From the NCBI GenBank assembly GCA_964364715.1, contig CAYING010000003.1, positions 3,764 to 67,763 on the forward strand: a DNA stretch of 64,000 bases. Reading direction: 5' to 3'. The notes under the pieces were generated by a model, which saw only the letters and a program-made list of their open reading frames with translations, made no database searches and was not told the DNA's origin. Shown in pieces: positions 10,516-26,506 of this stretch. Made by a program: the position numbers and the translations under genes. Position 1 is the stretch's first letter; every line of letters starts with the position of its first letter. This DNA is from an uncultured Planctomycetales bacterium (GTDB lineage Bacteria; Omnitrophota; Gorgyraeia; Zapsychrales; GWA2-47-8).

Positions 10516-11653
10516 ACTTTCTCTTGGAAGTAAAGGCCATCATAATAAAATGGATCGTCAGCCCCGCGAATGTGACAAAGGTCGCAATATAGGGCAAAAT
10601 CCAGCCGCCATTCTTAACGACCGCCAGCGTCGAGGCCTCGTTCCCCATCTTATCGATCTGATAAGAAGATTGGTATAAAGTAAATTCTTTATCCCGCAAA
10701 GGATTATTCATTGAGATCAATTTCTCGCGCCACGCGTTATTTGTGTTGATGGCTACCTGGCTGCTGAAGCTGCGCGGGGTATCAGTCCCCGGATATTGTT
10801 CCTTAATGAAATCAATCATTTTCAGATGGAACGGCAATTGATGCCGCGCCTGCCGCAGCATCATGGCATAATTTTTTCCGCCGGCCTTAAACGAGAACGG
10901 AGTTTCCTCACTCCCGTAAAGCATTAGGTCAAAATTTTCTCCGTCTTTCGGCTGAATAGTGAAAATTCCGCCCGGGGTGTTTTTCTCCGGCTCTTTCTCG
11001 AGGTCCGCCGGCTGCAGCCGCTGGATCCCGGAAGCGCTCAATATCTTCTTTTCATCCGCCGGGCCTGAGTAGGCCAGGCAATTCCGGTAAAAATCTTTTA
11101 CGGTCAACTTAAAGCCCAGCTGGAAAACATCAACTTCCTGCCCCGTTTTTAGGCCGCCCGCATCGATCGCCGTGACCTCGCGGGTATACTGCAGAGGCTT
11201 TTCATCTTTCCCCGCTTCCCAAACCGCGACCTCCCAATTATGGTATGCCGTCGAGACATTGGAGCTTTGGCCTTCGTATAATGTGAGAAAACTTTCCCGC
11301 GAGCTATGGAGCACAATATAACCGGATATCAAGAAAAGCATAAGGCCGAAATGGATAATGATGATGCCGATATTCCGCCATTTGTAAACCAACCGGGTCA
11401 ATGCCACACATACCAAATTAATGAACAAGACCCACATCACCAGCTGAGCCCCGGGAAAAGGGATAAATCCCAGCACCAGAAAAAAGAACGATTCGAAGAA
11501 TCTCTCCTGGGCGATGTACAAACCCTGTTGAACCTGAGCGATCGTTCCCCAATACGTGAGGATGAACAACAAGATCAAACACACGACCGCCAATTTCACG
11601 GAGGAAAGTGATTTAATGATTTTATTCTTGCGGAGTTTTTGACGGAAATTCAT
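10484..11653 (-). CDS. ccsB: Cytochrome c biogenesis protein CcsB/ResB
   Basis: N-terminal TM helix, large periplasmic domain and C-terminal TM helices, as in the ResB family. Adjacent to and overlapping ccsA. Confidence 0.75.
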   Translation of the reverse strand: MNFRQKLRKNKIIKSLSSVKLAVVCLILLFILTYWGTIAQVQQGLYIAQERFFESFFFLVLGFIPFPGAQLVMWVLFINLVCVALTRLVYKWRNIGIIIIHFGLMLFLISGYIVLHSSRESFLTLYEGQSSNVSTAYHNWEVAVWEAGKDEKPLQYTREVTAIDAGGLKTGQEVDVFQLGFKLTVKDFYRNCLAYSGPADEKKILSASGIQRLQPADLEKEPEKNTPGGIFTIQPKDGENFDLMLYGSEETPFSFKAGGKNYAMMLRQARHQLPFHLKMIDFIKEQYPGTDTPRSFSSQVAINTNNAWREKLISMNNPLRDKEFTLYQSSYQIDKMGNEASTLAVVKNGGWILPYIATFVTFAGLTIHFIMMAFTSKRKFESPYVDEGK

Positions 11654-11657
11654 TGCA

Positions 11658-12434
11658 TTATTTCAAGTGAATGGATTTAACAAAACTCTTGAGCGTATCA
11701 CGGCTGCTCAAAACCGCCGGTTTCGGGCCGGTCATTTTAACAAAAATTTGAGAACCTTCTTTTTCAATGACCGCGGCGATCATGCTCGGGGCGTCCGGCG
11801 GAGAATCATTCTGCATCTGAGTAAGGTCGATCAGGGTGACGGGCATTCCCTTGTCCGTGGAAAATTTTTCCTGGCGCTGGATAAAGCTGTCCAATTCTTT
11901 GGCATCCGGGACCGGGATCTTGATCTGCTGGATCCAGCGCGCCACGTTTGCGCTCAGCCCGCCGGCTGATCCGCCTAATGAAACGATGGTTGTTTCGGTC
12001 TTGGGGTCGGTCGAGGTAAATGTCGCCAGCCGCAATCCGCCGCCTCTTTTTTCCGACCATCCCTTGGGCGTTTCCCATTCCAGAGGAGTTTGATCGGCGG
12101 AGGCGCTGATCTGCTGCTGCAGGGCAGGATCGTTCATTCCCTGCATCATGGGAGGTATGTCTTGCTGATTAGAACCCTTTAAGCCGGCGTGGATGTCATC
12201 GTCAGGCATGAGCCCGGCGCGAACGCCATCCTGGGGCATAAGCCCGGCATGGATATCGTCTTGCGGCATACCGGAGAACATTCCTCCGGTTGGCGGGGTC
12301 ATCTTCTTAGGAGCATCCCCGAAGACTTCTGTGTATTGACGGAGTTTGGCAGGCTGTTCACATCCCAGGAACAGAACTGATGTAAGGGAAATATATAAAA
12401 ATAAAAGGCCGAACCGGCCGGAAATCTGCAGCAT
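11658..12434 (-). CDS. Lipoprotein with a tandem peptide repeat (MPxDxIHAGL x3), function unknown
   Basis: Lipobox LFLGC. DNA tandem repeat of ~30 nt at about 12180-12270 encodes MPQDDIHAGLMPQDGVRAGLMPDDDIHAGL. Confidence 0.6.
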   Translation of the reverse strand: MLQISGRFGLLFLYISLTSVLFLGCEQPAKLRQYTEVFGDAPKKMTPPTGGMFSGMPQDDIHAGLMPQDGVRAGLMPDDDIHAGLKGSNQQDIPPMMQGMNDPALQQQISASADQTPLEWETPKGWSEKRGGGLRLATFTSTDPKTETTIVSLGGSAGGLSANVARWIQQIKIPVPDAKELDSFIQRQEKFSTDKGMPVTLIDLTQMQNDSPPDAPSMIAAVIEKEGSQIFVKMTGPKPAVLSSRDTLKSFVKSIHLK

Positions 12435-12517: not shown

Positions 12518-14014
12518 CTAACTCCCGGAATGGCACTCTGAACAGTGCATTTCCTTCCACCCCTCATCTGTTTCATCCGGATGGCGAAACGGAAGACCGT
12601 CCGCGTTCTTCTCAGTGGCCCCGACGGGCCCCTGTTCAATAATGGAATGGCACTGATTGCAATCCTTGGACAAAACCTTCCCGTCCGATGTCTTATGCTT
12701 CTCATCATGGCACCGGAAGCATCCCGGGAAAATAAAATGCCCGATATTATCTGGGTACGCCTTCCACGATGCCTTCATCCGGGGAAAAATATTCATCTTA
12801 TAAATTTCCAAGATCGATGCCACCGCCTGGTCGACCAAGCTCCGGTTCTGAGAAAAAAATTCCGGATATTTTTTCTGATAAAATTTCTCGATTTTTTCTT
12901 TGATCGCGGATTCTGCCGCCTCTTCGGTCTCATACTCTGCGGATAAAACCTTCAACGCCTCCCGCTTGATATACGGGATGGAGTTGTCGATCGCGCCGCG
13001 AGCCAGCACCTCGTTGAGCGTTTTGTCCGGAGAGTTGTAAATGTGCGCAGGACGGTTATGACAGTCCATGCAATCCATCTGACGCAGTTCTCCCTCCGGC
13101 GGTTTCTCCGCAGAATATTTTGAGTCCTCATCAACGTAGATGTCCTCTTTGCCGTCGGCACGGACGACTTTGATCCAGGGAATCGTTTGCCGCTTTGCAT
13201 CTGTGGCGACATAATACACCTTGCTGTTGATATTCATATGCCAATGGATCCCCTCCTTCTTTCCATACGGAGGGTTCCCGCCGCCCACCAGCATCAGCAT
13301 CCTGCTCTTCCAGGCGGTATTTTTCTCATCGGACAAAAAATAAGTTTTATCTGCTTCAATTGCGCCGAAAAACTGCTGCGGCCAATGGCACTTTTCGCAG
13401 GTCTCTTGAGCCGGACGAAGATTTTTGACCGGGGTCTCTATCGGACGGCTATATTTCTTGAAAATGACAGAATAAACCTGATATGTCCCGGCAAGTTTCG
13501 ATCTGACGTACCAATCCACCCCATGCCCGATATGACAATGAACGCACGCCACCCGGGCATGCGGTGAATTCTGATAGGTCGTGAATTCCGGATGCATGAC
13601 TTGATGGCATGTCTTCCCGCAAAACGTCACCGATTCGGTAAATTCATAAGCCCGGTAACTCCCCACCGCCGTGAACAGCAAAAACGCCGTCACAACACAG
13701 ATTGTGACATACGCGATCCTCTGATGCATGGGATTATTGAAATCAATGTGAGGAAAACGCCGGGCATGACCGCGCTTGACCCTTAGCTTGCGCTCGAGCA
13801 TGGCGCCGATGGGGATCAGCAATAAAGAAATGATGAGGAAAATCGGAGCGATTAAATACGTAACCACCCCAAGGTACGGGTTCGCCTCTTTATTGCGGAA
13901 GTCTAGAATGAAAAATACGAGAATGACGGAAAAGCAGAAGCTGGAAAGGATGCCTCCGGCGACGCTGACCCAATTTTGAAAGAGACTCGGTTGTTTATTT
14001 TCGTCGGACTGCAT
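12518..14014 (-). CDS. Membrane-anchored heptaheme cytochrome c, NapC/NrfH-like quinol dehydrogenase type
   Basis: Seven CXXCH motifs (CGKTCH, CVHCH, CEKCH, CMDCH, CFRCH, CNQCH, CSECH). N-terminal TM helices lie immediately before the first heme motif. Confidence 0.8.
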   Translation of the reverse strand: MQSDENKQPSLFQNWVSVAGGILSSFCFSVILVFFILDFRNKEANPYLGVVTYLIAPIFLIISLLLIPIGAMLERKLRVKRGHARRFPHIDFNNPMHQRIAYVTICVVTAFLLFTAVGSYRAYEFTESVTFCGKTCHQVMHPEFTTYQNSPHARVACVHCHIGHGVDWYVRSKLAGTYQVYSVIFKKYSRPIETPVKNLRPAQETCEKCHWPQQFFGAIEADKTYFLSDEKNTAWKSRMLMLVGGGNPPYGKKEGIHWHMNINSKVYYVATDAKRQTIPWIKVVRADGKEDIYVDEDSKYSAEKPPEGELRQMDCMDCHNRPAHIYNSPDKTLNEVLARGAIDNSIPYIKREALKVLSAEYETEEAAESAIKEKIEKFYQKKYPEFFSQNRSLVDQAVASILEIYKMNIFPRMKASWKAYPDNIGHFIFPGCFRCHDEKHKTSDGKVLSKDCNQCHSIIEQGPVGATEKNADGLPFRHPDETDEGWKEMHCSECHSGS

Positions 14015-14092: not shown

Positions 14093-15529
14093 TTATTTAT
14101 ACCGTTCCTGAAACTGCTTTTGAGCTTCAAGCCGTTTCGCCGCCTCGGCCGGATCCATTTTGTTGATATACCATTTATGGTCCGCAGATTCCAGGACTTC
14201 CGATAATTTATTTTTTAACATCTGGGCTGCTTCTGATTCTTTCTTGTCCTTGGAGTCGATGTTCTTTTCAACAATCGCCTCAAGCGCCGGGATAAATTCG
14301 GCATAGAACCTTTTGGCGACCTCGTAGGTCCCGTGCCAATGCGTATAATCCGGCCCCATCATAGACGCGCCGTGCCTTGCCCTACGCCCTTCATGATGCC
14401 ACAGCTCATACCAGATAAAATCGATCTCATTACTGAATTCTACCGGCTTCAATAATGGCTGCGCCAATTTCATCAGCTCCTGACCCGGCCTGGCAAATTT
14501 CTCAGTATACAATTCCAACAGGCTGTCATATTGCAGATAAAAGCTGTCCACATAATTGGCGCTGTGGCATTCTGTGCAGACTTTCTTCATGTTCTTCCGG
14601 CGGGTTTCCCAGGACACGTCTTTCCCGGGGAGTCCCATCTTGCCATCGGAAACTTCCGGACGGATAGAAATAGCCGGCCGATTGTTCCAACTGATACGCA
14701 TCCCGACGTCGTGGGTGACATCCATATCCGGGGTCGCGCTCATATGGCAAGTCGCGCACGTCGGAGCAGCATTATAATCTTCGCCGAGAACCCATTTCTC
14801 ATTATCTAAATTCATTTTATGTTTATTCGCATGAAAGGCAATGCCGTGCTTCGATTCTTCGTAGATCTCGATCTGCGGATGGTCCGGCCCCATATGGCAT
14901 TTTCCGCAATTCTCCGGATTTCTGGCCTGTTCAACGGAAAATTTGTGCCGGGAATGGCATGCCGAGCAGGAACCTTCGGACCCATCGGGATTGATCCGGC
15001 CGATCCCGGTATTGGGCCACGTGGCCGGGTCCAGGGAACCGTCCTTCAAAACCTTAACTTCGGAGCCGTGGCATTGCCAGCAGCCGTTAACGGCAGCGGC
15101 GGAGACACCTTCCGGAAAACCAGGCGTTTTCATCATAAGATTGCCCTCGACGATATCCGCGAGGCGATTGTCCAAGGAGCCAAGAATCCTGGCGCCTTTG
15201 GAATGGTGAGACGAATTGAATTCGTTGACCTCTTTAGCATGGCAGCGGGAGCAATCCTGAGGCGAAACAATTATGGAGATGATCTCGCCGTAATGGTCAA
15301 TGGCATCCTTATCGGATTTATCGGCCTGATGGCATTCATAACATCCGACATTGCCCCTAAAATGCTTGCTGGCACCCCACTGCTGAACGATAACGGGCGT
15401 CTCTTCCCGGTGGCATTCAAGACAATCCTTGGACTTGACCGACAACTCGTCAAGACCGTAGGCACTGCGCCATACCAGAACAAAAGTTAATAATAAAAAA
15501 CATGCCCCCGAAAAGAAATATTTTTTCAT
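14093..15529 (-). CDS. Octaheme cytochrome c, hydroxylamine oxidoreductase (HAO)-like
   Basis: Eight CXXCH motifs (CLECH, CYECH, CSRCH, CWQCH, CSACH, CGKCH, CATCH, CTECH). Size ~480 aa. The signal peptide starts at the internal Met MKKYFFSGACFLLL; the track's 50-aa N-terminal extension is rejected. Confidence 0.8.
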   Translation of the reverse strand: MKKYFFSGACFLLLTFVLVWRSAYGLDELSVKSKDCLECHREETPVIVQQWGASKHFRGNVGCYECHQADKSDKDAIDHYGEIISIIVSPQDCSRCHAKEVNEFNSSHHSKGARILGSLDNRLADIVEGNLMMKTPGFPEGVSAAAVNGCWQCHGSEVKVLKDGSLDPATWPNTGIGRINPDGSEGSCSACHSRHKFSVEQARNPENCGKCHMGPDHPQIEIYEESKHGIAFHANKHKMNLDNEKWVLGEDYNAAPTCATCHMSATPDMDVTHDVGMRISWNNRPAISIRPEVSDGKMGLPGKDVSWETRRKNMKKVCTECHSANYVDSFYLQYDSLLELYTEKFARPGQELMKLAQPLLKPVEFSNEIDFIWYELWHHEGRRARHGASMMGPDYTHWHGTYEVAKRFYAEFIPALEAIVEKNIDSKDKKESEAAQMLKNKLSEVLESADHKWYINKMDPAEAAKRLEAQKQFQERYK

Positions 15530-15572
15530 AATCGTTCCGTCCATTGTTTTCCCGTCTAAATTTCTACGATAG

Positions 15573-16130
15573 TTACTCTTTCGGCACCGGGTGCTTGATC
15601 TGTTCGAGTCTTTCCTTGAAATCAAAAGATTTATATGTCGGGGCTTCGGGGTTGTGGCATTTCTTGCAAGTATTTTCATCAGGAATTACCAGGCCCTGCG
15701 CGACCGCTTCTTCCTCATCTTCCATAACGCTTTTCTTCATATAATCCTTGCCGGCGCCGTGACAGGATTCACAGGAAACCCCTTCCTCGACGGTAATCGC
15801 CTCGGTGGCCTTTGCTTCCGTGAAATTATAAGCCGTTGAATGGCATTTCAGGCATTTGCCGCTTGTGGACGGATCATCAATACCTAACTTAGCGGCCTGC
15901 TCTTTGGCCTCCGGGGTCTTTAAGGTCTCAAACGCTTTGGCATGTTTTGACTCCTGCCAGATTTTAAACTGTTCCCCCTGCTCCGGTTTTTTATGGCACA
16001 TGGAACATTTTGTAACTCCCACAAATTCGTGTTCCGCCTGGACGGCGGACATCTCAGCGCCCCACATAAGCATAACTGCACATCCCCCAAAAACTAATAC
16101 GGCATTAATGACTGTTAAGCCTCGTTTCAT
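15573..16130 (-). CDS. Tetraheme cytochrome c
   Basis: Four CXXCH motifs (CSMCH, CLKCH, CESCH, CKKCH). N-terminal signal/anchor. Confidence 0.8.
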   Translation of the reverse strand: MKRGLTVINAVLVFGGCAVMLMWGAEMSAVQAEHEFVGVTKCSMCHKKPEQGEQFKIWQESKHAKAFETLKTPEAKEQAAKLGIDDPSTSGKCLKCHSTAYNFTEAKATEAITVEEGVSCESCHGAGKDYMKKSVMEDEEEAVAQGLVIPDENTCKKCHNPEAPTYKSFDFKERLEQIKHPVPKE

Positions 16131-16161: not shown

Positions 16162-17313
16162 TTATTTTTCCTGAATCCCTTGATCCGGCTGCGCTGAGTG
16201 CGGAATGCCAAAAATATCAAATTTATATTCTTTGCCGAAAATTTTTTGTTTACTCTCCGAAATAAACCCTAAAACACCAAATACCAATAAAGACAACAAA
16301 ACCAAGACCCCTATGGTCACCGAGATCGGGCGTTTGAACGGATGCCGCTGAGGGCTTCTATCCAAAAAAGGCCACAATAAAAGCAAGACAGGCGCCAGAC
16401 CGACGACAAAAATCCCCAAAAGTTTAGAAAAATATTTCAAAACATGATACATCGGCAAAAAATACCACTCCGGCTTTATCCCCTCGGGAGTGCTTAACGG
16501 ATCGGCCTTTTCGCCCAATTCAAAAGGAGCCAGGATCGATAACGTGATCAAGATACCGAGCAGAATAAAAAAGACGACCCCTTCCTTGAGCATATGGTGC
16601 GGGAAGAACGGGATCCCGTCTTTTACCTTAGTCTCTTTCTCATCCCCCACCGGGTCCATCGTCGCGATCCCCTGAAACCTCACCAAAAATAGATGAATGG
16701 CAATCAAAAAGAAAACCGTCCAGGGAAGGATGATGACGTGGATCACAAAGAAACGGGAAAGAGTTTCTCCGCCGACCGACGTGCCCCCCCGCATCAATGT
16801 CTTCATCCATTCTCCGACAAACGGAATAGCGCCGGCGATCTCTGTCCCGACCGTCGTTGCCCAATACGCCAACTGGTTCCACGGCAGAAGATATCCCGTA
16901 AACCCGAAGACTAACGTCAAAACGAACAGAAAAACACCAATAAGCCAGGTTATTTCCCGCGGTCTTTTGAACGATCCGGTAAAAAATGTGCGCAGCATAT
17001 GCAGAAAGACAACGATCACCATCAAATTCGCCCCCCAGGCATGGACCTGACGGTATAACCACCCCATATACGGTGTGGTCATAATAAATTTAATGCTCTC
17101 AAAGGCTTCATCGACGGTGGGACGGTAATAGATCAAGAGCAATATCCCGGTCAGGACCTGGCTGACAAAAAGGAATAAGGACATGCTTCCGAGGGTATGA
17201 AACCAACCGGTACTTCTGGGAAGCGGTTTTTTGATCTGGTACTGCAGCGACCCTTCGATCTTCTCCAGATCGTAGCGCTTCGACAACCATTCTCTTAAAT
17301 TAAATTTCAGCAT
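16162..17313 (-). CDS. Cytochrome b (fused cytochrome b6 / subunit IV type) of a Rieske/cytochrome b complex
   Basis: Conserved cytochrome b segments: GWFHTLGSMSLFLFVSQVLTGILL, bis-His helix pairs, and PEWYFLPMY of the C-terminal portion. Confidence 0.9.
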   Translation of the reverse strand: MLKFNLREWLSKRYDLEKIEGSLQYQIKKPLPRSTGWFHTLGSMSLFLFVSQVLTGILLLIYYRPTVDEAFESIKFIMTTPYMGWLYRQVHAWGANLMVIVVFLHMLRTFFTGSFKRPREITWLIGVFLFVLTLVFGFTGYLLPWNQLAYWATTVGTEIAGAIPFVGEWMKTLMRGGTSVGGETLSRFFVIHVIILPWTVFFLIAIHLFLVRFQGIATMDPVGDEKETKVKDGIPFFPHHMLKEGVVFFILLGILITLSILAPFELGEKADPLSTPEGIKPEWYFLPMYHVLKYFSKLLGIFVVGLAPVLLLLWPFLDRSPQRHPFKRPISVTIGVLVLLSLLVFGVLGFISESKQKIFGKEYKFDIFGIPHSAQPDQGIQEK

Positions 17314-17345: not shown

Positions 17346-17816
17346 TTACACCTTCACCATGACTCTGCCGTTGACAACGCTCACTTCATGCGGCGGGAGC
17401 GGGCGCGGCGGAGGCCCTGCCACAACTTTTCCATCAAGATCAAAAAGGCCCGCATGGCAAGGGCAGATGATCTCCCGTTTCTTACCGTCCCACTCGACCA
17501 AACACCCTAAATGGGTGCAGATGGCAGAATAGGCCTTAAACCCTTGCGGCGTTCGGATAACCAGAATAGCGCTGCCTGCCACAATTACTTTTTTCCCTCC
17601 CCAGGCCGGAATATCATCCTCGGCGCCGACATCACTTAAACCCCCGGCCGGACCCCGACGGGTCACCGGCCAAAGATAAGCTAAGGCCGGGGCCACCATC
17701 CCGGCCAAGGTCGTGAACAGCCCCAGCCGGATGATCCATCCCAGAAAATCCCTGCGGCTCAAATTTTCCTTTTCCAAAACTGCGGTTTTTACGTGCCCCG
17801 GATTTTCATTTACCAT
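17346..17816 (-). CDS. Rieske [2Fe-2S] iron-sulfur protein
   Basis: Rieske boxes CTHLGC and CPCHAG. Canonical twin-arginine signal SRRDFLG. An internal start (MVNENPGH) abuts the upstream cytochrome gene. Confidence 0.85.
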   Translation of the reverse strand: MVNENPGHVKTAVLEKENLSRRDFLGWIIRLGLFTTLAGMVAPALAYLWPVTRRGPAGGLSDVGAEDDIPAWGGKKVIVAGSAILVIRTPQGFKAYSAICTHLGCLVEWDGKKREIICPCHAGLFDLDGKVVAGPPPRPLPPHEVSVVNGRVMVKV

Positions 17817-17817
17817 A

Positions 17818-19068
17818 TTATTGCCCACTCTTCTTTCGTGCATCCTCTTCAAGCTTTAACCGCTTATATTCCGCGTTCAACGCCAAAACCATGATCAAAA
17901 TGAAAATCCACAGAACAACCAGGCCGACCTTCCGCCACTTAAGCCCTTTGCGTTTACCGTCGATGCTGGCTTTAATTTCCTTGATCTTCACAGCGGATTG
18001 ATTATAAAGATCCGACAACTCATCATAGATCAATTTATGCTGCAGAGGCTGCATTTCCAAAACTTTTGATCTGACCTCCTCCAAAAGCGCTTCTTCCTCT
18101 TCGATAAAAAACCCTTCGATACCGGCCTGCTTAACGATTCCGCGGGTGTCCTTCAGTTCACTATCCGCTTTCTGCAGGATTTTCTTGATCGCCTGGCCTT
18201 GCTGGAACGCTTTGCTCTCCGGCGTATGGCATTTGACGCACGCCTGGTCATAAAGGGCAATGCTGACCGGCTGGACATCATGATTGCTGTGGCAGGAAAC
18301 ACATTCCGAAAATTTATCCCCCTCAGTGATCGAGGCATGGACGCTTTCCAAAAAACGGGCCTTCTCATTGATATGGCATTTACCGCACGTGGCGCCGACC
18401 TCTCTGAATCCAGGCGGAACCGCCCCGTGGCTGCCGTGACAGCTGGCGCAGTTGGCGGCCGAGGTATCGCCTTTTTCGAATAATGCTTTTCCGTGAACGC
18501 TGTTTTTGTATTTTTCGAATACATCCGACGGGAGGCCAAAGGAATGCATCAACTTTTCATTCCCGTGGCACTTGGCGCAGGTCTTAGGAAGATTGCCGGG
18601 ATAGACCGAACTGTTCGGGTCAGAGATCTTCAGGACTTCATGATATCCATGGCAATCACTGCAGACGGCAACTTTGGTATTACCCTCTTCCAAAAGTTTT
18701 TTGCCATGATGACTTGTCTTATATTGGGCGAGTTGATCGGTACGGGTCCCATAAAAATTCATGGTACTGACATCCGAATGACAATTGCCGCAGAGCTCCA
18801 TGGTCTGCTTTTTGTCCGGGATACCGATATAACCCGTTCCCGGGCCCTTGGCTAAGTCCTTGTCATCCTGGGCGGGATCACCGCCGTGGCATTTATTGCA
18901 GTAAATTCCCTGCTGAGAGTGAGCGCTCCCCTTGACCTCATCCCACATATCCGAATGACATGCAACGCAGGAATTCCCTCCAATTTCCTGCGAAAAAGTA
19001 AAATTGGCAAAGCTGAGAAATATAATTATTAGATAAATGATCTTCATAAATTTCCCTAAAAGGATCAA
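17818..19068 (-). CDS. Nonaheme cytochrome c with C-terminal transmembrane anchor (occupies the cytochrome c1 position)
   Basis: Nine CXXCH motifs. Signal peptide. C-terminal TM helix VGLVVLWIFILIMVLAL. Confidence 0.8.
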   Translation of the reverse strand: MILLGKFMKIIYLIIIFLSFANFTFSQEIGGNSCVACHSDMWDEVKGSAHSQQGIYCNKCHGGDPAQDDKDLAKGPGTGYIGIPDKKQTMELCGNCHSDVSTMNFYGTRTDQLAQYKTSHHGKKLLEEGNTKVAVCSDCHGYHEVLKISDPNSSVYPGNLPKTCAKCHGNEKLMHSFGLPSDVFEKYKNSVHGKALFEKGDTSAANCASCHGSHGAVPPGFREVGATCGKCHINEKARFLESVHASITEGDKFSECVSCHSNHDVQPVSIALYDQACVKCHTPESKAFQQGQAIKKILQKADSELKDTRGIVKQAGIEGFFIEEEEALLEEVRSKVLEMQPLQHKLIYDELSDLYNQSAVKIKEIKASIDGKRKGLKWRKVGLVVLWIFILIMVLALNAEYKRLKLEEDARKKSGQ

Positions 19069-19113: not shown

Positions 19114-19896
19114 TCAAGCATAACTATGCAATGTTGAAAAAAACAAATTTACCCCAATGTAGGTAAAAAGAATAACTACAAACCCCAACATTGTTAAAAG
19201 AGCGGCATTAAGACCGCGTAAATTCCGTGTATGGCGCAAATGAAGACAGCCGGCATAGATCAACCACGTTGTTAATGCCCATATTTCTTTGGCATCCCAA
19301 TTCCAGAATCTTCCCCAGCTGATACTGGCCCATATAGAACCGCAGGCCAACCCCACCGTTAAGAAAGGGAACCCCCTGTCAAGCACTTGGAAAATCATCC
19401 CCTCAAGACTATCCAATAAAGCCTTATTATTACCGCGATAGCGCAAAATATTGATGATATAAACAAGGCTCAAACCAAAGGCTATCGCGAAACTGGCATA
19501 AGCAATAAGATAAGATCCCACATGAAAATAGAGCCAGCCGCTTCTCAATGACGGCATCAGCGGACGTATGGCATCATTAATAAAAAGGGAGAATACCAGC
19601 AAACACAACGCCACTACAATCCCCAGCAATTTGATCCAGCGGAACCCCAACCGGAACGCGGCATAAAAGCTCAACATCACAATCAGCCAGGCAAAAACGA
19701 TCAATGTTTCATACGTATCGGTTAATGGAAAACGCTGCGCTTCAATAGCTCGTTTGACAATCAAATAGCCGTGCAATCCCCACCCTGTCATCAAAAAAGA
19801 GCCTTCAATAACAGTAAAAAAATTTTCCCTAACCTTCCCGGCTATGAGGAAAAAAACCAGGGACAAAAAATAGAGGACAATGACTCCTATCATCAT
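19114..19896 (-). CDS. ccsA: Cytochrome c biogenesis protein CcsA (second, canonical-length copy)
   Basis: WWD motif WGRFWNWDAKEIWAL. Eight TM segments. Confidence 0.85.
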   Translation of the reverse strand: MMIGVIVLYFLSLVFFLIAGKVRENFFTVIEGSFLMTGWGLHGYLIVKRAIEAQRFPLTDTYETLIVFAWLIVMLSFYAAFRLGFRWIKLLGIVVALCLLVFSLFINDAIRPLMPSLRSGWLYFHVGSYLIAYASFAIAFGLSLVYIINILRYRGNNKALLDSLEGMIFQVLDRGFPFLTVGLACGSIWASISWGRFWNWDAKEIWALTTWLIYAGCLHLRHTRNLRGLNAALLTMLGFVVILFTYIGVNLFFSTLHSYA

Positions 19897-21236
19897 AACC
19901 CTTCCATCCTCCGCTCTATGTCCTTAACAATTTTTTGTATTTCCTTCTCAAAGGAAAATACATTTTTGCACTTCATGGCTCGAGCGCTAACATACGAGGT
20001 CATGTTTGAAATATCTTCTTTAACAGTGATAACCAAACCGCGATAAAACCGGTAACTGCTTAAAAAAGATCCGGCAACAAGCAAAATCAGCCCAAAATAT
20101 GTTATATACTCGCCGGGATTCTTCGCGTATTTTATGCCGGAGGTATACCGGGACTTAATGCCGTCCAGCATGAACCTCAATTTCTCCGGAGTCTCCGTGG
20201 ATCCTGTATGAGGCATCACTCCGCGGAAAACCCACTGCTCCCGAGCCGGCAAAGAAGAATTGGCCGGTGAATAAATCAAAAGATAACCGGCCGGATTCCT
20301 TAATATATGACTTCGGGTTGAAGGCTGGTTATTCTCATCGATAAAAAAATCCGGGATAAAATTTTTAACCTTTAAAGCGATATTCAACTCGGGAACAGCG
20401 ACCAGATTATCAACACCCATCGTCAAAATCTTAACCGGCTGACTTTCATTTTCACGGAAGATGGCAATGCGTAACTCGTCAATATCAAAACTAAATCTCT
20501 GCTGATAAAGCCTAACACCTTCGATTCTTAAGGGGCCATTGACTTTTAATGTGCGCCATTCTATGGGTTTTCCCGGACGGTTGATTCTTAAGCGGCTGGC
20601 ATAATCATCAGTTTTTTCTTTAGCGGCGCTTGGGATAACCGCGAATTTTTCCAGCGTTAATAAAGCGTCCGTCCCCTCCAACGGGATCGTTTCTCCTTCG
20701 CGAATGGAAAAATCATAAAACCTTCCGCCCCCGGCCGTAATTATGCCGGCTAACAACAATACCGCAACAGCCAGATGAACGATATGTGAACCGAAGATAT
20801 TAAATTTTGCTTTTTCATAAAAAAATCTCTCTTCGCCTTGGCCTGGCTCACAATAAGCCGTCTTACGATAACGCCATTGACTTAAGACCTGGTGAATATG
20901 CTCTGTGACAAGCTGTCTATTTTTTTTCTTAAAAGAAAAATTAAAAACTTCTTTCTCCGCTAACGAAGAGAAGAAATTGCGGAAGGATTCCTTATCTTGT
21001 ACAGAAGAAAATATTCTCTTATGGTATTGATAAAATTTGATGAGTCCCGGCCATCGTCTGACCGAACAATACCCCATCATCAAGACGATATAACACAAAT
21101 AGCCCAAAAACAAACGGTTTTGGAAAACCGCTCTGAAGGAAGGAGAAACGCCCAGCAGACTGATCAGTCCGAGAGAAAGGAGCAGGAAGATCGTTAAGGG
21201 GACAGATAGAAAGATCCTATCAAAAAATTTAAGCAT
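19893..21236 (-). CDS. ccsB: Cytochrome c biogenesis protein CcsB/ResB (second copy)
   Basis: ResB-like topology. 4-nt overlap with the downstream ccsA. Confidence 0.75.
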   Translation of the reverse strand: MLKFFDRIFLSVPLTIFLLLSLGLISLLGVSPSFRAVFQNRLFLGYLCYIVLMMGYCSVRRWPGLIKFYQYHKRIFSSVQDKESFRNFFSSLAEKEVFNFSFKKKNRQLVTEHIHQVLSQWRYRKTAYCEPGQGEERFFYEKAKFNIFGSHIVHLAVAVLLLAGIITAGGGRFYDFSIREGETIPLEGTDALLTLEKFAVIPSAAKEKTDDYASRLRINRPGKPIEWRTLKVNGPLRIEGVRLYQQRFSFDIDELRIAIFRENESQPVKILTMGVDNLVAVPELNIALKVKNFIPDFFIDENNQPSTRSHILRNPAGYLLIYSPANSSLPAREQWVFRGVMPHTGSTETPEKLRFMLDGIKSRYTSGIKYAKNPGEYITYFGLILLVAGSFLSSYRFYRGLVITVKEDISNMTSYVSARAMKCKNVFSFEKEIQKIVKDIERRMEGL

Positions 21237-21272
21237 CGAGTTACTATTAAACCATACTTTGTCCCCGATTAA

Positions 21273-23312
21273 TTAAAATTTTCTGTTATAAACGACTTCC
21301 GCGCCTACCCCATGATAATCATCAAAATCGTTATAACCGCCGTAGCCGACGGTCTTTGCATTAAAATTGTAGTATTCAAGACGGGCCGAAATGCTTGCAT
21401 CATCATTTAAACTATGGTTAGCGCTGAGCCAGAGTTTATCAAGGCTATTTCTGATCGTTCCATCAACTTCGTTATGTTGCAACCCAAAACCGGTTGACGT
21501 CTTATTCGTAAATCGATAACTTCCGCCGAGTAAGCCGACATAACGATTGACTTTATAATCAAAAGCCTTACCCCCCTGATAGAAGGTGGAATTGGTGGAA
21601 ATCCCCTCTCCGGGAGTATACAAACCCTGAAGTTCCCCCATCAGCATGAATGTAAGGGTAAATTTATCCGTTAAAAGACCCATCAAATTTCCTGAAATGG
21701 CATTGCGCATCATTTGCATGCCATTTTGACCTTGTTGACGTGCATACCCCAAGTCATTATCTTCATAAATATACTGCAGGCCGCCGTTCCATTTTTTAGT
21801 AATGCTGGCGTTGTAGCCTAAGGTGACTTGATCAATTGTCTGATCCGAACTCCCCATATAACCGGGATAGGATGCCGGCAAATTGTCCCTTACGTTTTCG
21901 TATTTTCTTCTTTTATCGGCATGTTTATACTTCGCCGTTACCTTTGATTTATCATTTAGCCTGGTTGAAAGTAGAAACGTATTAATAATATCGTTGTTCC
22001 GGATATTGGTTTCGCGGTCGATGGTCCTTTCTGCCCCTGTTACCGCATAGTCGCTAACCATTTCGTAACTGCTGATATCGGCCAGCTCGCTCCAATTCAA
22101 CTTTCTTTGTTCCAACTCCAGGGTATAAGACAGGTTGGTCTTTTTTATGCCGGTATAGGCCACAGAGAAAGTTTCCCCATACTGGTATTCCGACTGGTCG
22201 GACTCGGCTTTCCTCACCACAGTCCCCCCTCTAAACCCGTCTCCTTCAGCTTCCGTTTCCGCGTTCTCAAAACGCGTATTAAACCCGATACGGAGGTCTT
22301 TTATCAAACTATCTAAATTCACCAACCCCAAATTAAGGATATTGGCCTTCCGCTCATTACTTGTATCCGGGTTAATGAATTGATTCAAAGTGGTCCCGGA
22401 CGCGGCGACCCCGCCGGATATCGGCCGTAATTCCGTACGGGTCGTCCTGTTCTTTAAATCCTGAAAAAGATAGTTGGTCGCAAGATACGTCTTTTCAGAT
22501 AGAAAACTGTTATAGCTGGCATGCGTTAATGATTCCTGAAATTGCGGCTCATCGTAGTAGTTTCTTTGTTGGTTTAATGCCCCATTGGAATACCGCGAGG
22601 AAAGGATGGCCTGATCATCATGGTAAAGTTCGATCTGCTGTTTGAGGGCCACATTATGTTTTTCATTGATCTGCTTGGAGAGCTGAACAAAAGCCTTGTC
22701 GCTTACGCCATCGACATCCGCCGCGATCACACTGGAGCGCAGCGTGTTCAATCCGGTGAAAGCAACCTCCTCACCGCGCAACAATGTTTCCTGTCCATTA
22801 CGTGACCAGCGGGTATATCCGATGGTCACATCAGGAAGACTATCCAGTTTAATCCCGTATTCCACATCCGTATCAAACCGGTCCGTATAGGTATGATTAT
22901 CTTTCTTTTCAGCCGTTTCCCTTCCAAGCCCATAACTTGCCGGATCCCATGGTTCGTTGGAACCGTCATAATAGCGGCGGGTCAGCCGGGTATTCAGTTT
23001 AAGAAAATAAGAATCTTCTTTTGCTAAATCCAAATTCAATCCATAATCACCATCATAAAGAGCATGAGCTTCAATAGACAAAATGGCATCTTTAATATTG
23101 CCGCTCAGCATTAATTCCTCAAGCCCGCCGGAATAGTTATCGGTGACATAATTATCTTCCCTAAAGCGGCCCTCATCGCCGTCAATGACCATAAAACGGG
23201 AACCGATCTTGAAGGAATCCAAGGTCAAAGATGATTTTGCGTGGGCGACATCCCAAGACAAAAATACCGCCATACAAAGGAACAAATAGTGTAATATTAT
23301 TTTTCTATACAT
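21273..23312 (-). CDS. Outer-membrane beta-barrel protein (679 aa), candidate porin partner of the adjacent periplasmic multiheme cytochrome (MtrB/PioB-like role)
   Basis: Signal peptide. Alternating amphipathic beta-strand pattern throughout. C-terminal aromatic residue (…VVYNRKF). Lies immediately downstream of a periplasmic heptaheme cytochrome. Confidence 0.55.
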   Translation of the reverse strand: MYRKIILHYLFLCMAVFLSWDVAHAKSSLTLDSFKIGSRFMVIDGDEGRFREDNYVTDNYSGGLEELMLSGNIKDAILSIEAHALYDGDYGLNLDLAKEDSYFLKLNTRLTRRYYDGSNEPWDPASYGLGRETAEKKDNHTYTDRFDTDVEYGIKLDSLPDVTIGYTRWSRNGQETLLRGEEVAFTGLNTLRSSVIAADVDGVSDKAFVQLSKQINEKHNVALKQQIELYHDDQAILSSRYSNGALNQQRNYYDEPQFQESLTHASYNSFLSEKTYLATNYLFQDLKNRTTRTELRPISGGVAASGTTLNQFINPDTSNERKANILNLGLVNLDSLIKDLRIGFNTRFENAETEAEGDGFRGGTVVRKAESDQSEYQYGETFSVAYTGIKKTNLSYTLELEQRKLNWSELADISSYEMVSDYAVTGAERTIDRETNIRNNDIINTFLLSTRLNDKSKVTAKYKHADKRRKYENVRDNLPASYPGYMGSSDQTIDQVTLGYNASITKKWNGGLQYIYEDNDLGYARQQGQNGMQMMRNAISGNLMGLLTDKFTLTFMLMGELQGLYTPGEGISTNSTFYQGGKAFDYKVNRYVGLLGGSYRFTNKTSTGFGLQHNEVDGTIRNSLDKLWLSANHSLNDDASISARLEYYNFNAKTVGYGGYNDFDDYHGVGAEVVYNRKF

Positions 23313-23327
23313 GTTGCCCCCCTTCGT

Positions 23328-24149
23328 CTATCGATTAAGCGTTTTCCAAATATTTGAGCCATGCACGGCCCGGTGGTGGTCAATACATTCCTGACCCTTC
23401 CCAATATAATAATCTCCGCCTGATCCTGCTTTCGTACCATGCTGAATAGCGCCGATAGTGCCGGTTGACGTATTAAAAGAAGGTTCCCAGTGGCAACGCA
23501 GACACAAATTCGCCTGATCCGCGACCAGCATCTTATCGTAAACAGCGCCATGCGGGTTATGGCACGTCTGACATCCTTCACGCATAACGTCGTGTTCAAA
23601 CACAAACGGCCCCTTCATTTCCTTATGACATTTAAAGCACGATTGATCGGATTTCTGAAGAGAGACCGTATTCATCGTTTCAAGTTCCGTCCCATGAGGG
23701 TTGTGGCAGTCTGTACACTTCATGCGTCCCTCCACCACCGGATGATGGTACTGTAAAAGAAATTCTCCTTTTTTATCCATATGGCAACTGAAGCAATTCT
23801 CCGGATCATAGCGGACAATATCTTTTTTGCTTTGACTCTCCGCGTGTTTACTTCCCGCTCCGTGACAACTTTCACAACCTCCGCCCAAAACATCCTCCTT
23901 CTCCCCGAGAACTCGATAGTGAGAAGTTAAAGAAAACCGTTGAGCTTGTTCCTCATGACACGTGGCACAGGTCTCGGTGCCGACATACGTTGCCCCCTTG
24001 ATCGCCGGAGGCATAATCCCCTCACCCGAGAAAGAATTCTTCAAAAATACCGGGGCAAATAAAAACAAAGCGGTCAACAGACAAAGAGAAACTATTGCCA
24101 TCCGCTTGTGATGAGACCGCCCCGTTCCTGATTGAATCGTTTTGTCCAT
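23328..24149 (-). CDS. Periplasmic heptaheme cytochrome c (MtrA/DmsE-like electron shuttle candidate)
   Basis: Seven CXXCH motifs in 273 aa. N-terminal signal peptide. Confidence 0.8.
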   Translation of the reverse strand: MDKTIQSGTGRSHHKRMAIVSLCLLTALFLFAPVFLKNSFSGEGIMPPAIKGATYVGTETCATCHEEQAQRFSLTSHYRVLGEKEDVLGGGCESCHGAGSKHAESQSKKDIVRYDPENCFSCHMDKKGEFLLQYHHPVVEGRMKCTDCHNPHGTELETMNTVSLQKSDQSCFKCHKEMKGPFVFEHDVMREGCQTCHNPHGAVYDKMLVADQANLCLRCHWEPSFNTSTGTIGAIQHGTKAGSGGDYYIGKGQECIDHHRAVHGSNIWKTLNR

Positions 24150-24184: not shown

Positions 24185-25222
24185 TTAGACTCCGACTTCC
24201 TCCATCGTGCTGATCTTTGCCAATTTCCCGTAAAATGCCGCGATCTTCTCTTGAATCATCGCTTCCACCTGCTTCACACATAACGAACGCTGCTGAACAC
24301 TCCCCTCAACGACCTTATCCAAATCATCGATCTCCTTTAAAATAACATTGGGGACATCCGCGACAGCCGGATCGATATTCCGCGGAATGGAAATATCGAT
24401 GCACAACAACTTTTTTTCACGGCAGGACATGATCTGCGCGATCAAATCCTTTTCAATCAGATAATGCGCACAGCTGGCCGAACAAATACACACATCCGCC
24501 TGTTCCAAGATTTCTTTGATCTGCCAGAACCCGGCGGCAACCCCGCCGTATTGCCGGGCTAGATCTTCGGCTTTTTCCTGGCTTCGGTTCATGACAAAAA
24601 TCTTTCCGATGCCCTTTTGCTGAAACTGACTGGCCGCCAATTTTCCCATCTTCCCGGCGCCCAGGATCAAAACGGATTTATCATTTAATTGACCCAAAAT
24701 ATTTTCCGCCATTTTTATGGCCGCCCAGCTGATCGAAGAACCGCCGGCATCGATCTCTGTTTCAGCCCTGGCCTTCTTCCCGATCCGGATGGCAAGGTTG
24801 GTCAGGATATTGAACTGTTTGCCCAGCATCCCTGCCGTGCGGCTCAATTCCGTCGCGACCTTCACCTGTCCCAAGATCTGTTTTTCGCCCAGGATAAGAG
24901 AATCCAGCCCGGTGGAAACAGAAAAAAGATGCCGAATGGCATCTTTCTCTTTTTTTACATAAAAATATTTCATAAGGTCATCGGAAAAATGGAGGTCCTT
25001 AATCTTAAAAAGCGACTTAACCAGAAGCGCCGGATCATCATCCAGAAGATGCGCGTAGATCTCAGTGCGGTTGCAGGTCGACAAGATCAGCGCTTCCACG
25101 ACCGAAGACTCGTTCTTTAAATGGGAAAGCAATAATTCTCTCTCAACGGTCCTCAAAAAGAATTTTTCTCTTATTTCAACCGGGCACTTTTTATGGCTGA
25201 CGCCGACAACGCACAGATGCAT
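24185..25222 (-). CDS. hemA: Glutamyl-tRNA reductase HemA
   Basis: Catalytic motif LSTCNRTEIY. NADPH-binding LILGAGKMGKLAA. Internal Met start (MHLCVVGVSHK) preferred over the track start at 25243. Confidence 0.85.
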   Translation of the reverse strand: MHLCVVGVSHKKCPVEIREKFFLRTVERELLLSHLKNESSVVEALILSTCNRTEIYAHLLDDDPALLVKSLFKIKDLHFSDDLMKYFYVKKEKDAIRHLFSVSTGLDSLILGEKQILGQVKVATELSRTAGMLGKQFNILTNLAIRIGKKARAETEIDAGGSSISWAAIKMAENILGQLNDKSVLILGAGKMGKLAASQFQQKGIGKIFVMNRSQEKAEDLARQYGGVAAGFWQIKEILEQADVCICSASCAHYLIEKDLIAQIMSCREKKLLCIDISIPRNIDPAVADVPNVILKEIDDLDKVVEGSVQQRSLCVKQVEAMIQEKIAAFYGKLAKISTMEEVGV

Positions 25223-25249
25223 TCTTCCCTCTCCTAGGTTCAATTAGGT

Positions 25250-25771
25250 TCAATGGTGAACGCTTAACTTCGAAATCAGGACATCCTGCTCTTCCGCCTT
25301 CAACCGGCGCATCATCTTGTAAATATTCTGCCCCTCGACTTGCAGATGATTGCGGACCAAACACACCAGATAGATCCCGTGGTCCCTCAATTTGGCGGCC
25401 AATTTTTGCTCTCCGGTGTCGGTCTTGGCCTTCTCAGCTTTTAAAAATAGCACTTCCAGCGCCTTAAATTCTTCTCTGATCTCAGCATGTTCCCCCTTAA
25501 AATACTCGAGAATCGGCTCATACTTAGGGATATGCTTTTGAAAAAACGGGAAAAGTTTATCGTCGTCAAACTTCATATGCGGGAAGAGATCCTTCTTTAT
25601 CGACCGTACGCTGCGGAATACATTCCGGATATTGCGCCGCACAAAGATCTTCCCTTCGTATTGAAGGTTGTTGAGCGCTGCGTAAAGTTTATTGACCTCT
25701 TTAAGCATTTCGGAATGTTCCGACTCTAAGCCCTGGATGGCTTTTTCTATCCTTGGATTCCGGCTGACCAT
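25250..25771 (-). CDS. Hemerythrin-like (HHE cation-binding domain) protein, paralog 1
   Basis: Four His/carboxylate helix motifs (ESEHSEM, HMKFDDDKLFP, GEHAEIREEF, RNHLQVEG). Paralogous to 59929..60567. Confidence 0.5.
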   Translation of the reverse strand: MVSRNPRIEKAIQGLESEHSEMLKEVNKLYAALNNLQYEGKIFVRRNIRNVFRSVRSIKKDLFPHMKFDDDKLFPFFQKHIPKYEPILEYFKGEHAEIREEFKALEVLFLKAEKAKTDTGEQKLAAKLRDHGIYLVCLVRNHLQVEGQNIYKMMRRLKAEEQDVLISKLSVHH

Positions 25772-25814
25772 AGAATTCTTTTAATTTTATTCTACTCAAA
25801 CCGGAGCTTTTGTC

Positions 25815-25830
25815 TGTGACTGCGGTCACA
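25815..25830. promoter_or_regulatory. Perfect CRP-type palindrome TGTGAC-N4-GTCACA between the Crp/Fnr gene and the hemerythrin-like gene
   Basis: tgtgactgcggtcaca, centred about 52 nt upstream of the ATG at 25771. It matches the TGTGA-N6-TCACA architecture. Confidence 0.5.
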
Positions 25831-25840
25831 AAGGCCTTAA

Positions 25841-26506
25841 CTATTTCAAAAGCTGTTTTTCCAGCGCCTCTTTATCGCATATAAGGATGCGCGGGGGCTT
25901 CAGGTCTACCAATGCCTTATCTTTAAGTTTTTTAAGATGCCGGGTGACTGTTTCACGAACCAAACCCAACCTTTGAGCGATCTCTTCGTGGGTAAATGAA
26001 ATACCGGGAACTGACTCGCTCATATTGAGCAGGAATTTGATCAAGCGTTTTTCCGGGGCATCCAAGGACACCTCTTCCACCAAAGAACTCATCCGGCATA
26101 AACGCTGGGCAAAAATGCGGGTTAAGGCTTGAGCCAGTGTGGAATTGCTTTTGACCATTTGCACATATTGGCTGCGGCTCACGATCCCCAGCTCGCAATC
26201 CGACATCGCCTGGGCCGATGAAGAACAGCTCCACTGCGTCGCGCCGGGGTTGCAGGCGCAGGTATCGCCGGACCCGAGGATCTCCAGGATCTGTTCCCGG
26301 CCATTGAGAGAAGTCCGGAATATTTTGACCCGCCCGGATAAGACAAAAAATATCTCCCGGCAGGATTCTCCGGCGGTCGAAATGACCTTATTTTTTTCAA
26401 AAATTTTTCGGATAATAGTGGGGGCGATCGCCTGCTTTTCCTTGAGCGACAAGTCGCGGAACAGTGATATGTTTTGGATCATATCTGGAGTAATGCGTGA
26501 CGACAT
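25841..26506 (-). CDS. Crp/Fnr-family transcriptional regulator with an internal Cys cluster, paralog 1
   Basis: cNMP-binding beta-roll plus C-terminal HTH (EIAQRLGLVRETVTRHLKKL). Conserved motif GDTCACNPG..WSCSSSAQA..DC. Start chosen by alignment with the paralog at 60718..61419. Confidence 0.85.
   Translation of the reverse strand: MSSRITPDMIQNISLFRDLSLKEKQAIAPTIIRKIFEKNKVISTAGESCREIFFVLSGRVKIFRTSLNGREQILEILGSGDTCACNPGATQWSCSSSAQAMSDCELGIVSRSQYVQMVKSNSTLAQALTRIFAQRLCRMSSLVEEVSLDAPEKRLIKFLLNMSESVPGISFTHEEIAQRLGLVRETVTRHLKKLKDKALVDLKPPRILICDKEALEKQLLK

Follow-up and report, generated by a model that had tools for sequence, protein, structure and literature searches.

A probable MtrAB-type electron conduit with an eight-site cytochrome and an atypical CxxHH terminal site, encoded beside a Rieske/cytochrome b complex in an Omnitrophota genome

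Conduits of the MtrAB/PioAB type carry electrons across the outer membrane by means of a multiheme cytochrome and a beta-barrel. In the Fe(II)-oxidising systems PioAB of Rhodopseudomonas palustris TIE-1 and MtoAB of Sideroxydans lithotrophicus, the cytochromes PioA and MtoA have ten hemes each, all at canonical motifs. In MtrCAB of Shewanella (PDB 6R2Q), MtrB is a 26-strand sheath that insulates MtrA in its lumen across the outer membrane, and the ten hemes of MtrA extend over 80 Å (PMC7198977). Only heme A10 of MtrA is exposed at the extracellular face of the crystal structure, and it contacts MtrC (PMC7198977). A published survey found the MtrCAB cluster in three phyla only (PMC8805035). The present analysis concerns a stretch of 64,000 nucleotides, hereafter the window, from contig CAYING010000003.1 (positions 3,764 to 67,763; assembly GCA_964364715.1) of an uncultured bacterium that is named as a member of the Planctomycetales and placed in the Omnitrophota by GTDB. 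A sequence-only reading of the window had proposed that a secreted seven-heme cytochrome and the beta-barrel encoded after it form an MtrAB/PioAB-type conduit next to a quinol-oxidising complex. The analysis indicates that the pair probably does form a two-component trans-outer-membrane conduit of this type, within a four-gene cassette whose own synthase would load the heme of a CxxHH site. New relative to the earlier proposal are the atypical terminal site, the recognition of an eight-site MtrA family, and the modularity of the four-gene cassette. The components of the cassette are:

23328..24149, minus strand: short MtrA-like multiheme cytochrome c, 273 amino acids (aa) (open reading frame [ORF]; Pfam Paired_CXXCH_1, 4.6e-27)
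23373..23387, minus strand: CIDHH, the atypical eighth heme-site motif, residues 255-259 of the cytochrome (translation and alignment to MtrA)
21273..23312, minus strand: MtrB-like outer-membrane beta-barrel and predicted cytochrome sheath, 679 aa (predicted fold and transitive homology)
19893..21236, minus strand: ResB/CcsB-like subunit of a System II cytochrome c synthase (Pfam ResB, 1.7e-25)
19114..19896, minus strand: CcsA/ResC-like heme-handling subunit (WWD domain) of the same synthase (Pfam Cytochrom_C_asm, 1.2e-40)

The cytochrome begins with a hydrophobic segment that, by inspection, resembles a Sec signal with a possible cleavage site between SFS and GEG. Seven CxxCH motifs follow at residues 61, 92, 119, 145, 171, 193, and 216. 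The proposed count of seven hemes is thus correct for the canonical motifs but incomplete, as comparison within the family reveals a conserved eighth site, CIDHH. When all PDB chains were searched with phmmer, the top match was MtrA of the Shewanella baltica MtrCAB complex (6r2q_A, E=1.8e-30), and the remaining matches were far weaker. MtrA has four motifs in residues 62-169 and six in residues 179-324, and the window motifs CFSCH, CTDCH, CFKCH, CQTCH, and CLRCH pair with five consecutive motifs of the latter region. Including the terminal site, six motifs align one-to-one with MtrA hemes 5-10, while the two N-terminal ones align with hemes 1-2. From this layout it follows that the window cytochrome lacks two of the ten hemes of MtrA. 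A second, overlapping alignment mirrors the internal duplication of MtrA. MtrA is also the sole significant Foldseek match of the AlphaFold2 (AF2) model of the cytochrome, which was built from 70 sequences and has a predicted local distance difference test score (pLDDT) of 68 overall, good in the N-terminal half only. Judged by its sequence, the window cytochrome is a true homolog of MtrA and DmsE and belongs to a short, eight-site family. Against the NCBIfam GSU2203 decaheme family it scores 176.4 bits, under the cutoff of 325. By inspection, many homologs carry a lipobox (e.g., …FIGAC, …ILSC), which is compatible with an outer-membrane location. The window protein has none, and no lipid anchoring elsewhere, one of two outcomes that the earlier reading had named as counting against a conduit, is predicted for it.

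Both ORFs lie where the sequence-only reading had placed them, and that of the barrel begins 15 nt past the stop codon of the cytochrome on the same strand. Its N-terminus, MYRKIILHYLFLCMAVFLSWDVAHA followed by KSS (cleavage after …VAHA), has by inspection the look of a classical signal peptide, and its C-terminus reads VVYNRKF. Nearly all homologs examined likewise end in Phe, with three exceptions. The barrel nature of this protein, which had been proposed from size and termini, is supported by its AF2 model (15 sequences; pLDDT 78.7; predicted template modelling score 0.70). This model contains 27 DSSP strand elements between residues 27 and 678, starting right after the signal peptide and with no N-terminal plug. 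Two elements that lie two residues apart, 245-254 and 257-270, are probably one kinked strand in the model, which would bring the total to about 26. In a Foldseek search of the PDB, MtrB (6r2q_B) ranks first, with E=3.6e-16 and template modelling (TM) scores of 0.62/0.64. The next matches are 22-strand TonB-dependent receptors with E ~5e-11 and TM ~0.4. MtrB is the best match by both fold methods and covers 550 residues, compared to ~400 for the receptors. The protein is also in the size class of MtrB and PioB, with 679 aa against the 649-residue MtrB chain.

Sequence relatives connect this barrel to the MtrB family at one remove. A word-seeded homology search returned only 16 relatives, and an exhaustive profile search of 1.84 billion representatives returned 452 at E<=1e-3, mostly of 650-810 aa. 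One of them, P0058 (E=2.5e-34 to the barrel family profile), passes the Pfam MtrB_PioB model with 30.3 bits (cutoff 23). That model is matched by 6 of the 68 relatives scanned (best E=1.6e-10), and a homolog from locus L022 (phmmer 5e-78 from the window barrel) carries the MtrB_PioB annotation. The search against the MtrB/PioB families suggested by the earlier reading therefore succeeds for relatives and fails for the window protein itself, and the barrel is best described as MtrB-like by predicted fold and transitive homology, not by a direct family match. Other identities were considered and rejected. A TonB-dependent receptor is not supported, as the model has no plug, Pfam plug and TonB_dep_Rec models are not matched, and the receptors align over only ~400 residues. 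An autotransporter or ordinary porin, which the earlier reading had named as the other outcome that would count against a conduit, does not agree with a plug-less model of ~26 strands. The only PDB sequence match, to ACE2 (E=0.041), was spurious. In some relatives of ~800-850 aa (P0072, P0103, P0122, and P0160), an N-terminal monoheme domain of the PSCyt1 ("planctomycete cytochrome c") type is fused to the MtrB-like barrel. To our knowledge, such a cytochrome-barrel fusion has not been described.

The pairing of the two genes is conserved. Related loci were collected from a scan of species-representative genomes (at least 6 loci), a metagenome scan (at least 8 loci), and look-ups of exact proteins. 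Among these loci, L001-L029, the cytochrome (255-280 aa) lies directly upstream of the barrel (646-728 aa) wherever both ends are present. The adjacency spans ~20 distinct lineages of the Omnitrophota, Planctomycetota, Elusimicrobia, and Poribacteria, and the source names of the loci are Elusimicrobia, Planctomycetales, Phycisphaerae, Planctomycetota, Omnitrophica/Omnitrophota, and Poribacteria. Because the adjacency recurs and because barrel homologs with identities as low as 27-30% retain their length, both ORFs are real genes and not chance reading frames. Elsewhere the cassette is found beside two-component regulators, Nqr/Rnf and quinone-biosynthesis genes, copper-related YHS/CsoR genes, or chemotaxis genes, and this variety of neighbourhoods shows that it is modular. 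In one Candidatus Poribacteria record (L019, 9001-17997), two tandem CxxHH cytochrome-barrel pairs are followed by a single ResB-CcsA pair. In two unrelated loci (L020, 14190-18810; L023, 123-837), cassettes adjoin genes for YHS-domain and CsoR-like (Trns_repr_metal) proteins, read here as copper-related. Such neighbours could be a sign that the substrate or regulator is a metal other than iron.

In the window, the cassette is part of a co-directional string of 14 genes on the minus strand, with intergenic gaps of <=83 nt and several overlaps. As the sequence-only reading held, the pair lies upstream of the genes for a Rieske/cytochrome b (bc) complex and a protein of the hydroxylamine oxidoreductase (HAO) family, in the order hemA, cytochrome, barrel, ResB, CcsA, nine-heme cytochrome, Rieske protein, cytochrome b, c554-like cytochrome, and HAO-like protein. 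The members of the string outside the cassette are:

24185..25243, minus strand: hemA, glutamyl-tRNA reductase, the first gene of the string (Pfam GlutR_N, 1.1e-43)
17818..19068, minus strand: nine-heme cytochrome c with a C-terminal membrane helix (nine CxxCH motifs and a C-terminal hydrophobic helix)
17346..17852, minus strand: Rieske 2Fe-2S protein (Pfam Rieske, 7.7e-13)
16162..17313, minus strand: cytochrome b of the fused b6/subunit IV type (Pfam Cytochrome_B, 2e-55; Cytochrom_B_C, 2.8e-19)
15573..16130, minus strand: tetraheme c554-like periplasmic cytochrome (Pfam Cytochrome_C554, 3.6e-18)
14093..15679, minus strand: HAO-family octaheme cytochrome, context outside the conduit (eight CxxCH motifs)
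12518..14014, minus strand: NapC/NrfH-like membrane multiheme cytochrome, context (Pfam Cytochrom_NNT)
11658..12434, minus strand: ORF of 258 aa (no Pfam match)
10484..11653, minus strand: second ResB (ResB2), 389 aa (Pfam)
8560..10515, minus strand: second CcsA (CcsA2), long form of 651 aa, the end of the string (Pfam)

The nine-heme cytochrome is presumed to be the cytochrome c subunit of the Rieske/cytochrome b complex, and the c554-like protein is a candidate electron shuttle. The 90%-identity cluster of the cytochrome b includes a sequence of "Omnitrophica WOR_2 bacterium GWA2_47_8", which makes a groundwater Omnitrophota genome the probable source, with moderate certainty. Rieske and cytochrome b genes adjoin the pair in four loci that include three different variants of the cytochrome. 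These are the window, L004, L006, and L024. L004, from a Planctomycetales metagenome-assembled genome, has the same order from hemA to the bc genes as the window. In L006 the order is Rieske, cytochrome b, HAO-like, cytochrome, and barrel, so that the HAO-like gene immediately precedes the pair. The operon of L024 is closely related to that of the window (cytochrome b, 6e-195; NrfH-like protein, 8e-238; nine-heme cytochrome, 1e-169). Between its hemA and bc genes, however, it encodes a different conduit cassette, with a Cx4CH cytochrome, a barrel that scores only 2e-22, and a long-type ResB/CcsA pair placed upstream. The whole module (5585-11900 of L024) has thus been exchanged at the operon position taken in the window (19114-24149) by the CxxHH cytochrome, its barrel and the short ResB/CcsA pair. 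Because two non-orthologous conduit modules occupy the same slot, these loci offer good comparative evidence that the conduit and the bc complex work together. The coupling to a quinol-oxidising complex, earlier proposed from this one operon, is strengthened by this recurrent linkage. Parts of the neighbourhood recur more widely: the nine-heme cytochrome is syntenic in L004, L024, and L018, L004, L014, and L024 likewise have hemA ahead of the cassette, and in L007, L008, L013, L017, L025, and L026 the gene immediately before the conduit cytochrome is c554-like.

The terminal site of the cytochrome is atypical. In the alignment, CIDHH of the window stands at the column of the tenth MtrA motif (CLNCH), which binds heme A10. 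The 120 closest homologs comprised 65 with CxxHH, 30 with CxxCH, and 25 with neither pattern, most of these being Cx4CH. In a tally over a tree of 131 cytochromes, with the terminal motif scored within the last 32 residues of each protein, 21 sequences had Cx4CH. The middle residues of CxxHH vary (ID, VD, LD, AD, AS, LN, or MS), while C255 is nearly invariant and H259 invariant. The neighbour-joining tree of the 131 cytochromes requires about seven changes of motif class. A full-text literature search for a CXXHH or CX2HH heme-binding motif found no paper, and the literature searched yielded no account of the short cytochrome family, the CxxHH site, or the linkage of this family to bc/HAO genes.

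Among lineages with adequate flanking sequence, the form of this site is associated with the presence of a synthase. An orthologous ResB and CcsA pair (CcsA orthologs, E<=1e-46) adjoins the CxxHH cytochrome in 10 of 11 lineages, namely the window, the L002 group, L004, L005, L009, L018, L019, L020, L021, and L026. The corresponding figure for CxxCH cytochromes is 0 of 8 (L006, L007, L008, L010, L013, L022, L023, and L025), L013 having no more than a distant CcsA in convergent orientation. In L024, the one Cx4CH locus examined, the long-type pair is directly upstream of the cytochrome. Taken conservatively as 10/11 against 1/8, the difference gives a hand-computed Fisher exact p of ~0.001 that ignores kinship among the lineages. 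Three contrasts between sister groups all agree (L019 with L022/L006; L005 with L007/8/12/25; L026 with L023). The synthase pair follows the cytochrome and barrel in most loci, while in L005 it lies upstream of them in divergent orientation and in L026 it also precedes them. In both the window and L004, a single gene string holds two different pairs of synthase genes. System II includes known examples of dedicated lyases in Wolinella, namely NrfI (for CXXCK) and CcsA1 (for the CX15CH site of MccA). Dedicated lyases are likewise described for CXXCK in NrfA and for the atypical site of SirA (PMC6976685), and it is well established that a single atypical heme motif can have a lyase of its own. 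For the cassette, the comparative pattern gives roughly even odds that its ResB/CcsA pair is a dedicated synthase for the CxxHH heme. The fuller proposal is more tentative, with the balance slightly against it. It holds that CxxHH is an undescribed motif of covalent heme attachment, located at the outward terminal heme of a widespread short MtrA family and matured by the dedicated System II synthase of a mobile four-gene cassette. The heme would be bound by a single thioether, possibly together with a His-vinyl bond or with a metal or substrate ligand nearby.

If these assignments are correct, the conduit might operate as follows. After export, the eight-site, MtrA-family heme wire would thread into the ~26-strand barrel. 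Scaled from the 80 Å spanned by the ten hemes of MtrA, a chain of eight hemes would measure ~60-65 Å and would still span an outer membrane of ~40 Å. On the periplasmic side, the conduit cytochrome would exchange electrons with the c554-like cytochrome and the nine-heme cytochrome of the bc complex, and through them would connect to the Rieske/cytochrome b complex and the HAO-family octaheme enzyme of the same gene string. The CxxHH heme, at the A10 position, would form the outer end of the wire and face the extracellular substrate, and the System II synthase encoded with the cytochrome and barrel would be needed to load it. Electrons could flow in either direction. They might be exported from quinol to extracellular acceptors, or imported from Fe(II) or a partner, in which case they would supply the HAO-family enzyme and a bc complex running in reverse. 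The top PDB match of the octaheme protein is 4qo5_A, a "hypothetical multiheme protein" (1.4e-53) that we take to be a reductive octaheme enzyme of Ignicoccus, whereas bacterial and anammox HAO score only ~1e-23 to 4e-23. This affinity would fit a branched reductive chain or nitrite-linked electron uptake.

Several observations weigh against parts of this interpretation. For the cytochrome, its eight heme sites (seven CxxCH and one CxxHH) leave two MtrA hemes without a counterpart. Its score of 168.6 bits against the NCBIfam DmsE family (TIGR03508) is under the cutoff of 192.2, and it is related to, yet not a member of, this curated decaheme family. The C-terminal half of its model, which contains the CxxHH site, is of low confidence (pLDDT <50 from about residue 200) and is silent on the geometry of that site. 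The window barrel has no match in Pfam (including MtrB_PioB, PF11854), NCBIfam, or a phmmer search of the PDB, and its 15-sequence family profile gave nothing useful against PDB sequences, so that its assignment rests on a predicted fold and transitive homology. The 64-kb window encodes no MtrC/OmcA-like or other extracellular cytochrome, nor any ORF with multiple CxxCH motifs outside the periplasmic and membrane cytochromes of the operon, and the organisation is therefore two-component, like PioAB and MtoAB. With regard to the synthase, one CxxHH lineage (L028/L029), whose locus is flanked by transposases, has no ResB/CcsA within ~5 kb. The CxxHH sequences belong mostly to a single large clade of a neighbour-joining tree that has no support values, so that part of the association reflects shared ancestry. 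Lastly, when the cassette CcsA was aligned with other CcsA types, it showed a normal WWD domain and histidines and no residue change that would explain specificity.

Three alternative explanations were considered. It could be argued that the 679-aa protein has no part in electron transfer and is just a large channel or transporter of the outer membrane of an ordinary kind, that the cytochrome is a mere periplasmic carrier for the bc/HAO enzymes, and that their adjacency is incidental. While the absence of a sequence-family match for the window barrel and the high fold scores of TonB-dependent receptors would allow this, the adjacency has been maintained over ~20 lineages, several phyla, and many contexts, including some without bc/HAO genes. 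Moreover, the MtrB fold is the better and longer match by both methods (550 residues compared with ~400), the model has no N-terminal plug, and relatives of the barrel pass the MtrB_PioB model. This explanation is highly improbable. The conduit, in turn, draws support from the MtrA homology of the cytochrome (E=1.8e-30), the adjacency in every related locus, and the bc linkage in four of them.

A second possibility accepts the conduit but regards the adjacent ResB/CcsA pair as a general maturation system with no special relation to CxxHH, either a hitch-hiker on a heme-rich, horizontally mobile cassette or a provider for the whole operon. The ordinary WWD domain and conserved histidines of the cassette CcsA point in this direction, as does the CxxHH lineage that lacks the pair. 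Inheritance within the one large CxxHH clade could account for the synteny, and the occurrence of the cassette in unrelated genomic contexts would fit a self-sufficient mobile unit. In the three independent sister contrasts, however, the pair accompanies CxxHH and is absent with CxxCH in otherwise similar loci; L026 and L023, for instance, both have a gene for a methyl-accepting chemotaxis protein (MCP) downstream. In addition, the linkage has been kept despite rearrangement (downstream, divergent upstream in L005, and upstream in L026), and the two different pairs in the strings of the window and L004 would be redundant if both were general. A purely general role is thus the less likely one, though it deserves serious consideration. 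The remaining alternative, somewhat less likely again, is that the CxxHH site holds no heme and is a conserved non-heme metal or substrate site (Cys/His/His) or a structural remnant, in which case a seven-heme wire would end inside the barrel. One Cys and two His are a common set of metal ligands, the second Cys that is normally needed for the second thioether bond is absent, and the literature search recovered no published CxxHH heme-binding motif. Yet the site swaps in evolution with the heme motifs CxxCH and Cx4CH at the same alignment column, H259, the proximal His, never varies and C255 hardly ever does, and the co-occurring machinery for heme attachment points to heme chemistry.

Several features of the operon and its surroundings are peripheral to the conduit. 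A scan for promoters and terminators in the operon did no better than on shuffled sequence, apart from one terminator-like hairpin just 3' of CcsA2 (~8522-8504). The listed start of the HAO-family gene overlaps the c554-like gene by 107 nt, and for this reason the true start is probably a later Met (MDGTIMKKYFF…). In the NapC/NrfH-like cytochrome (~500 aa) and its homologs in L004, L018, and L024, the first heme motif is a conserved Cx3CH (CGKTCH, CGLVCH, or CGRVCH), and six CxxCH follow. The window, L004, and L024 encode this cytochrome in the same gene string as long-type ResB2/CcsA2. Here, too, a synthase may be dedicated to an atypical motif. In CcsA2 (651 aa), the cytochrome-assembly domain is confined to residues 412-614, and the N-terminal 400 residues have no family assignment. 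Long forms of CcsA are also present in L004 (555 aa), where the second pair is arranged as in the window, and in L024 (531 aa). The 258-aa ORF (11658-12434), which separates ResB2 from the NrfH-like gene, encodes short repeats (GLMPQDGVRAGLMPDDDIHAGL) and has a lipobox-like sequence (…LFLGC) at its N-terminus. Directly upstream of hemA are genes for a hemerythrin-domain protein and a Crp/Fnr-type regulator (25250-26560, minus strand). The cassette of the Omnitrophica locus L018 (14106-18545) is likewise flanked by genes for hemerythrin and a Crp-family regulator, which suggests control in response to O2 or NO. L018 also neighbours a GH94 glycosyl hydrolase gene. Further away in the window, a 1191-aa ORF upstream of the operon (27670-31245, minus strand) was labelled as pyruvate:ferredoxin oxidoreductase-like by inspection only, and a 903-aa ORF (3846-6557, minus strand) lies downstream.

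If the assignment holds, MtrAB-type conduits would extend, in a compact eight-site form, well past the phyla catalogued for MtrCAB and into the Omnitrophota, Planctomycetota, Elusimicrobia, and Poribacteria. A conduit permanently coupled to a Rieske/cytochrome b complex and to an enzyme of the HAO family would also provide a genetic handle on extracellular electron exchange in uncultured lineages of groundwater and sediment. The terminal heme site exists in three interchangeable forms (CxxCH, Cx4CH, and CxxHH), and System II synthase genes of its own usually accompany the CxxHH form. From this combination follows a directly testable prediction about new heme-attachment chemistry and substrate specificity in CcsBA-type synthases, at exactly the heme that would touch the extracellular substrate.

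Among known systems, the window pair is close to the MtrAB core of Shewanella MtrCAB. The cytochrome is homologous to MtrA and its motifs align to hemes 1-2 and 5-10, MtrB with its 26 strands is the best match to the predicted barrel fold and of similar size, and the gene order, cytochrome then barrel, is the same. It differs in having eight heme sites in place of ten and CxxHH at the heme-10 site, in a barrel that the MtrB_PioB model does not recognise, and in the absence of MtrC or OmcA genes from the 64-kb window. The short family also brings its own ResB/CcsA genes, and it occurs in the Omnitrophota, Planctomycetota, Elusimicrobia, and Poribacteria as opposed to the three phyla of the MtrCAB survey (PMC8805035). 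In its two-component organisation without an extracellular decaheme partner, the window system resembles PioAB and MtoAB. With these it shares a cytochrome of the MtrA family, a barrel that appears to be a distant relative of the MtrB/PioB family, and a small periplasmic cytochrome gene that is often nearby (MtoD or PioC in the Mto and Pio systems, c554-like in the short-family loci). The inner-membrane partner, in contrast, is CymA/ImoA or the general bc1 complex in those systems and a dedicated Rieske/cytochrome b and HAO-family operon in the window. We know of no dedicated synthase genes for PioAB or MtoAB.

The porin-cytochrome (Pcc) complex of Geobacter (OmaB/OmbB/OmcB) includes an extracellular 12-heme lipoprotein cytochrome and a smaller porin-like protein of ~20 strands that is not related in sequence to Mtr. 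Membership in the Pcc group was rejected because the window cytochrome is clearly MtrA-like and the barrel MtrB-like. The joint encoding of a Rieske protein, cytochrome b, a multiheme cytochrome c, and an HAO-family octaheme protein resembles the Rieske/cytochrome b complexes of anammox bacteria, which have multiheme and HAO-like subunits. The octaheme protein of the window is nevertheless closest to PDB 4qo5 and not to anammox HAO or HDH, and we know of no outer-membrane conduit in anammox clusters. Finally, the cassette can be compared to the dedicated lyases of Wolinella (NrfI and CcsA1) and of System I in Shewanella and E. coli (NrfEFG and SirEFG). In the System I cases, a synthase gene lies beside an apocytochrome with one non-canonical motif among canonical ones (PMC6976685). 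The Wolinella lyases follow this pattern as well, and in the short family it is known from comparative-genomic association. CxxHH, in which the second Cys is replaced by His, is not among the motifs described for those lyases. Whereas their substrate is the active-site heme of an enzyme, the substrate of the cassette synthase would be the cytochrome of an electron wire.

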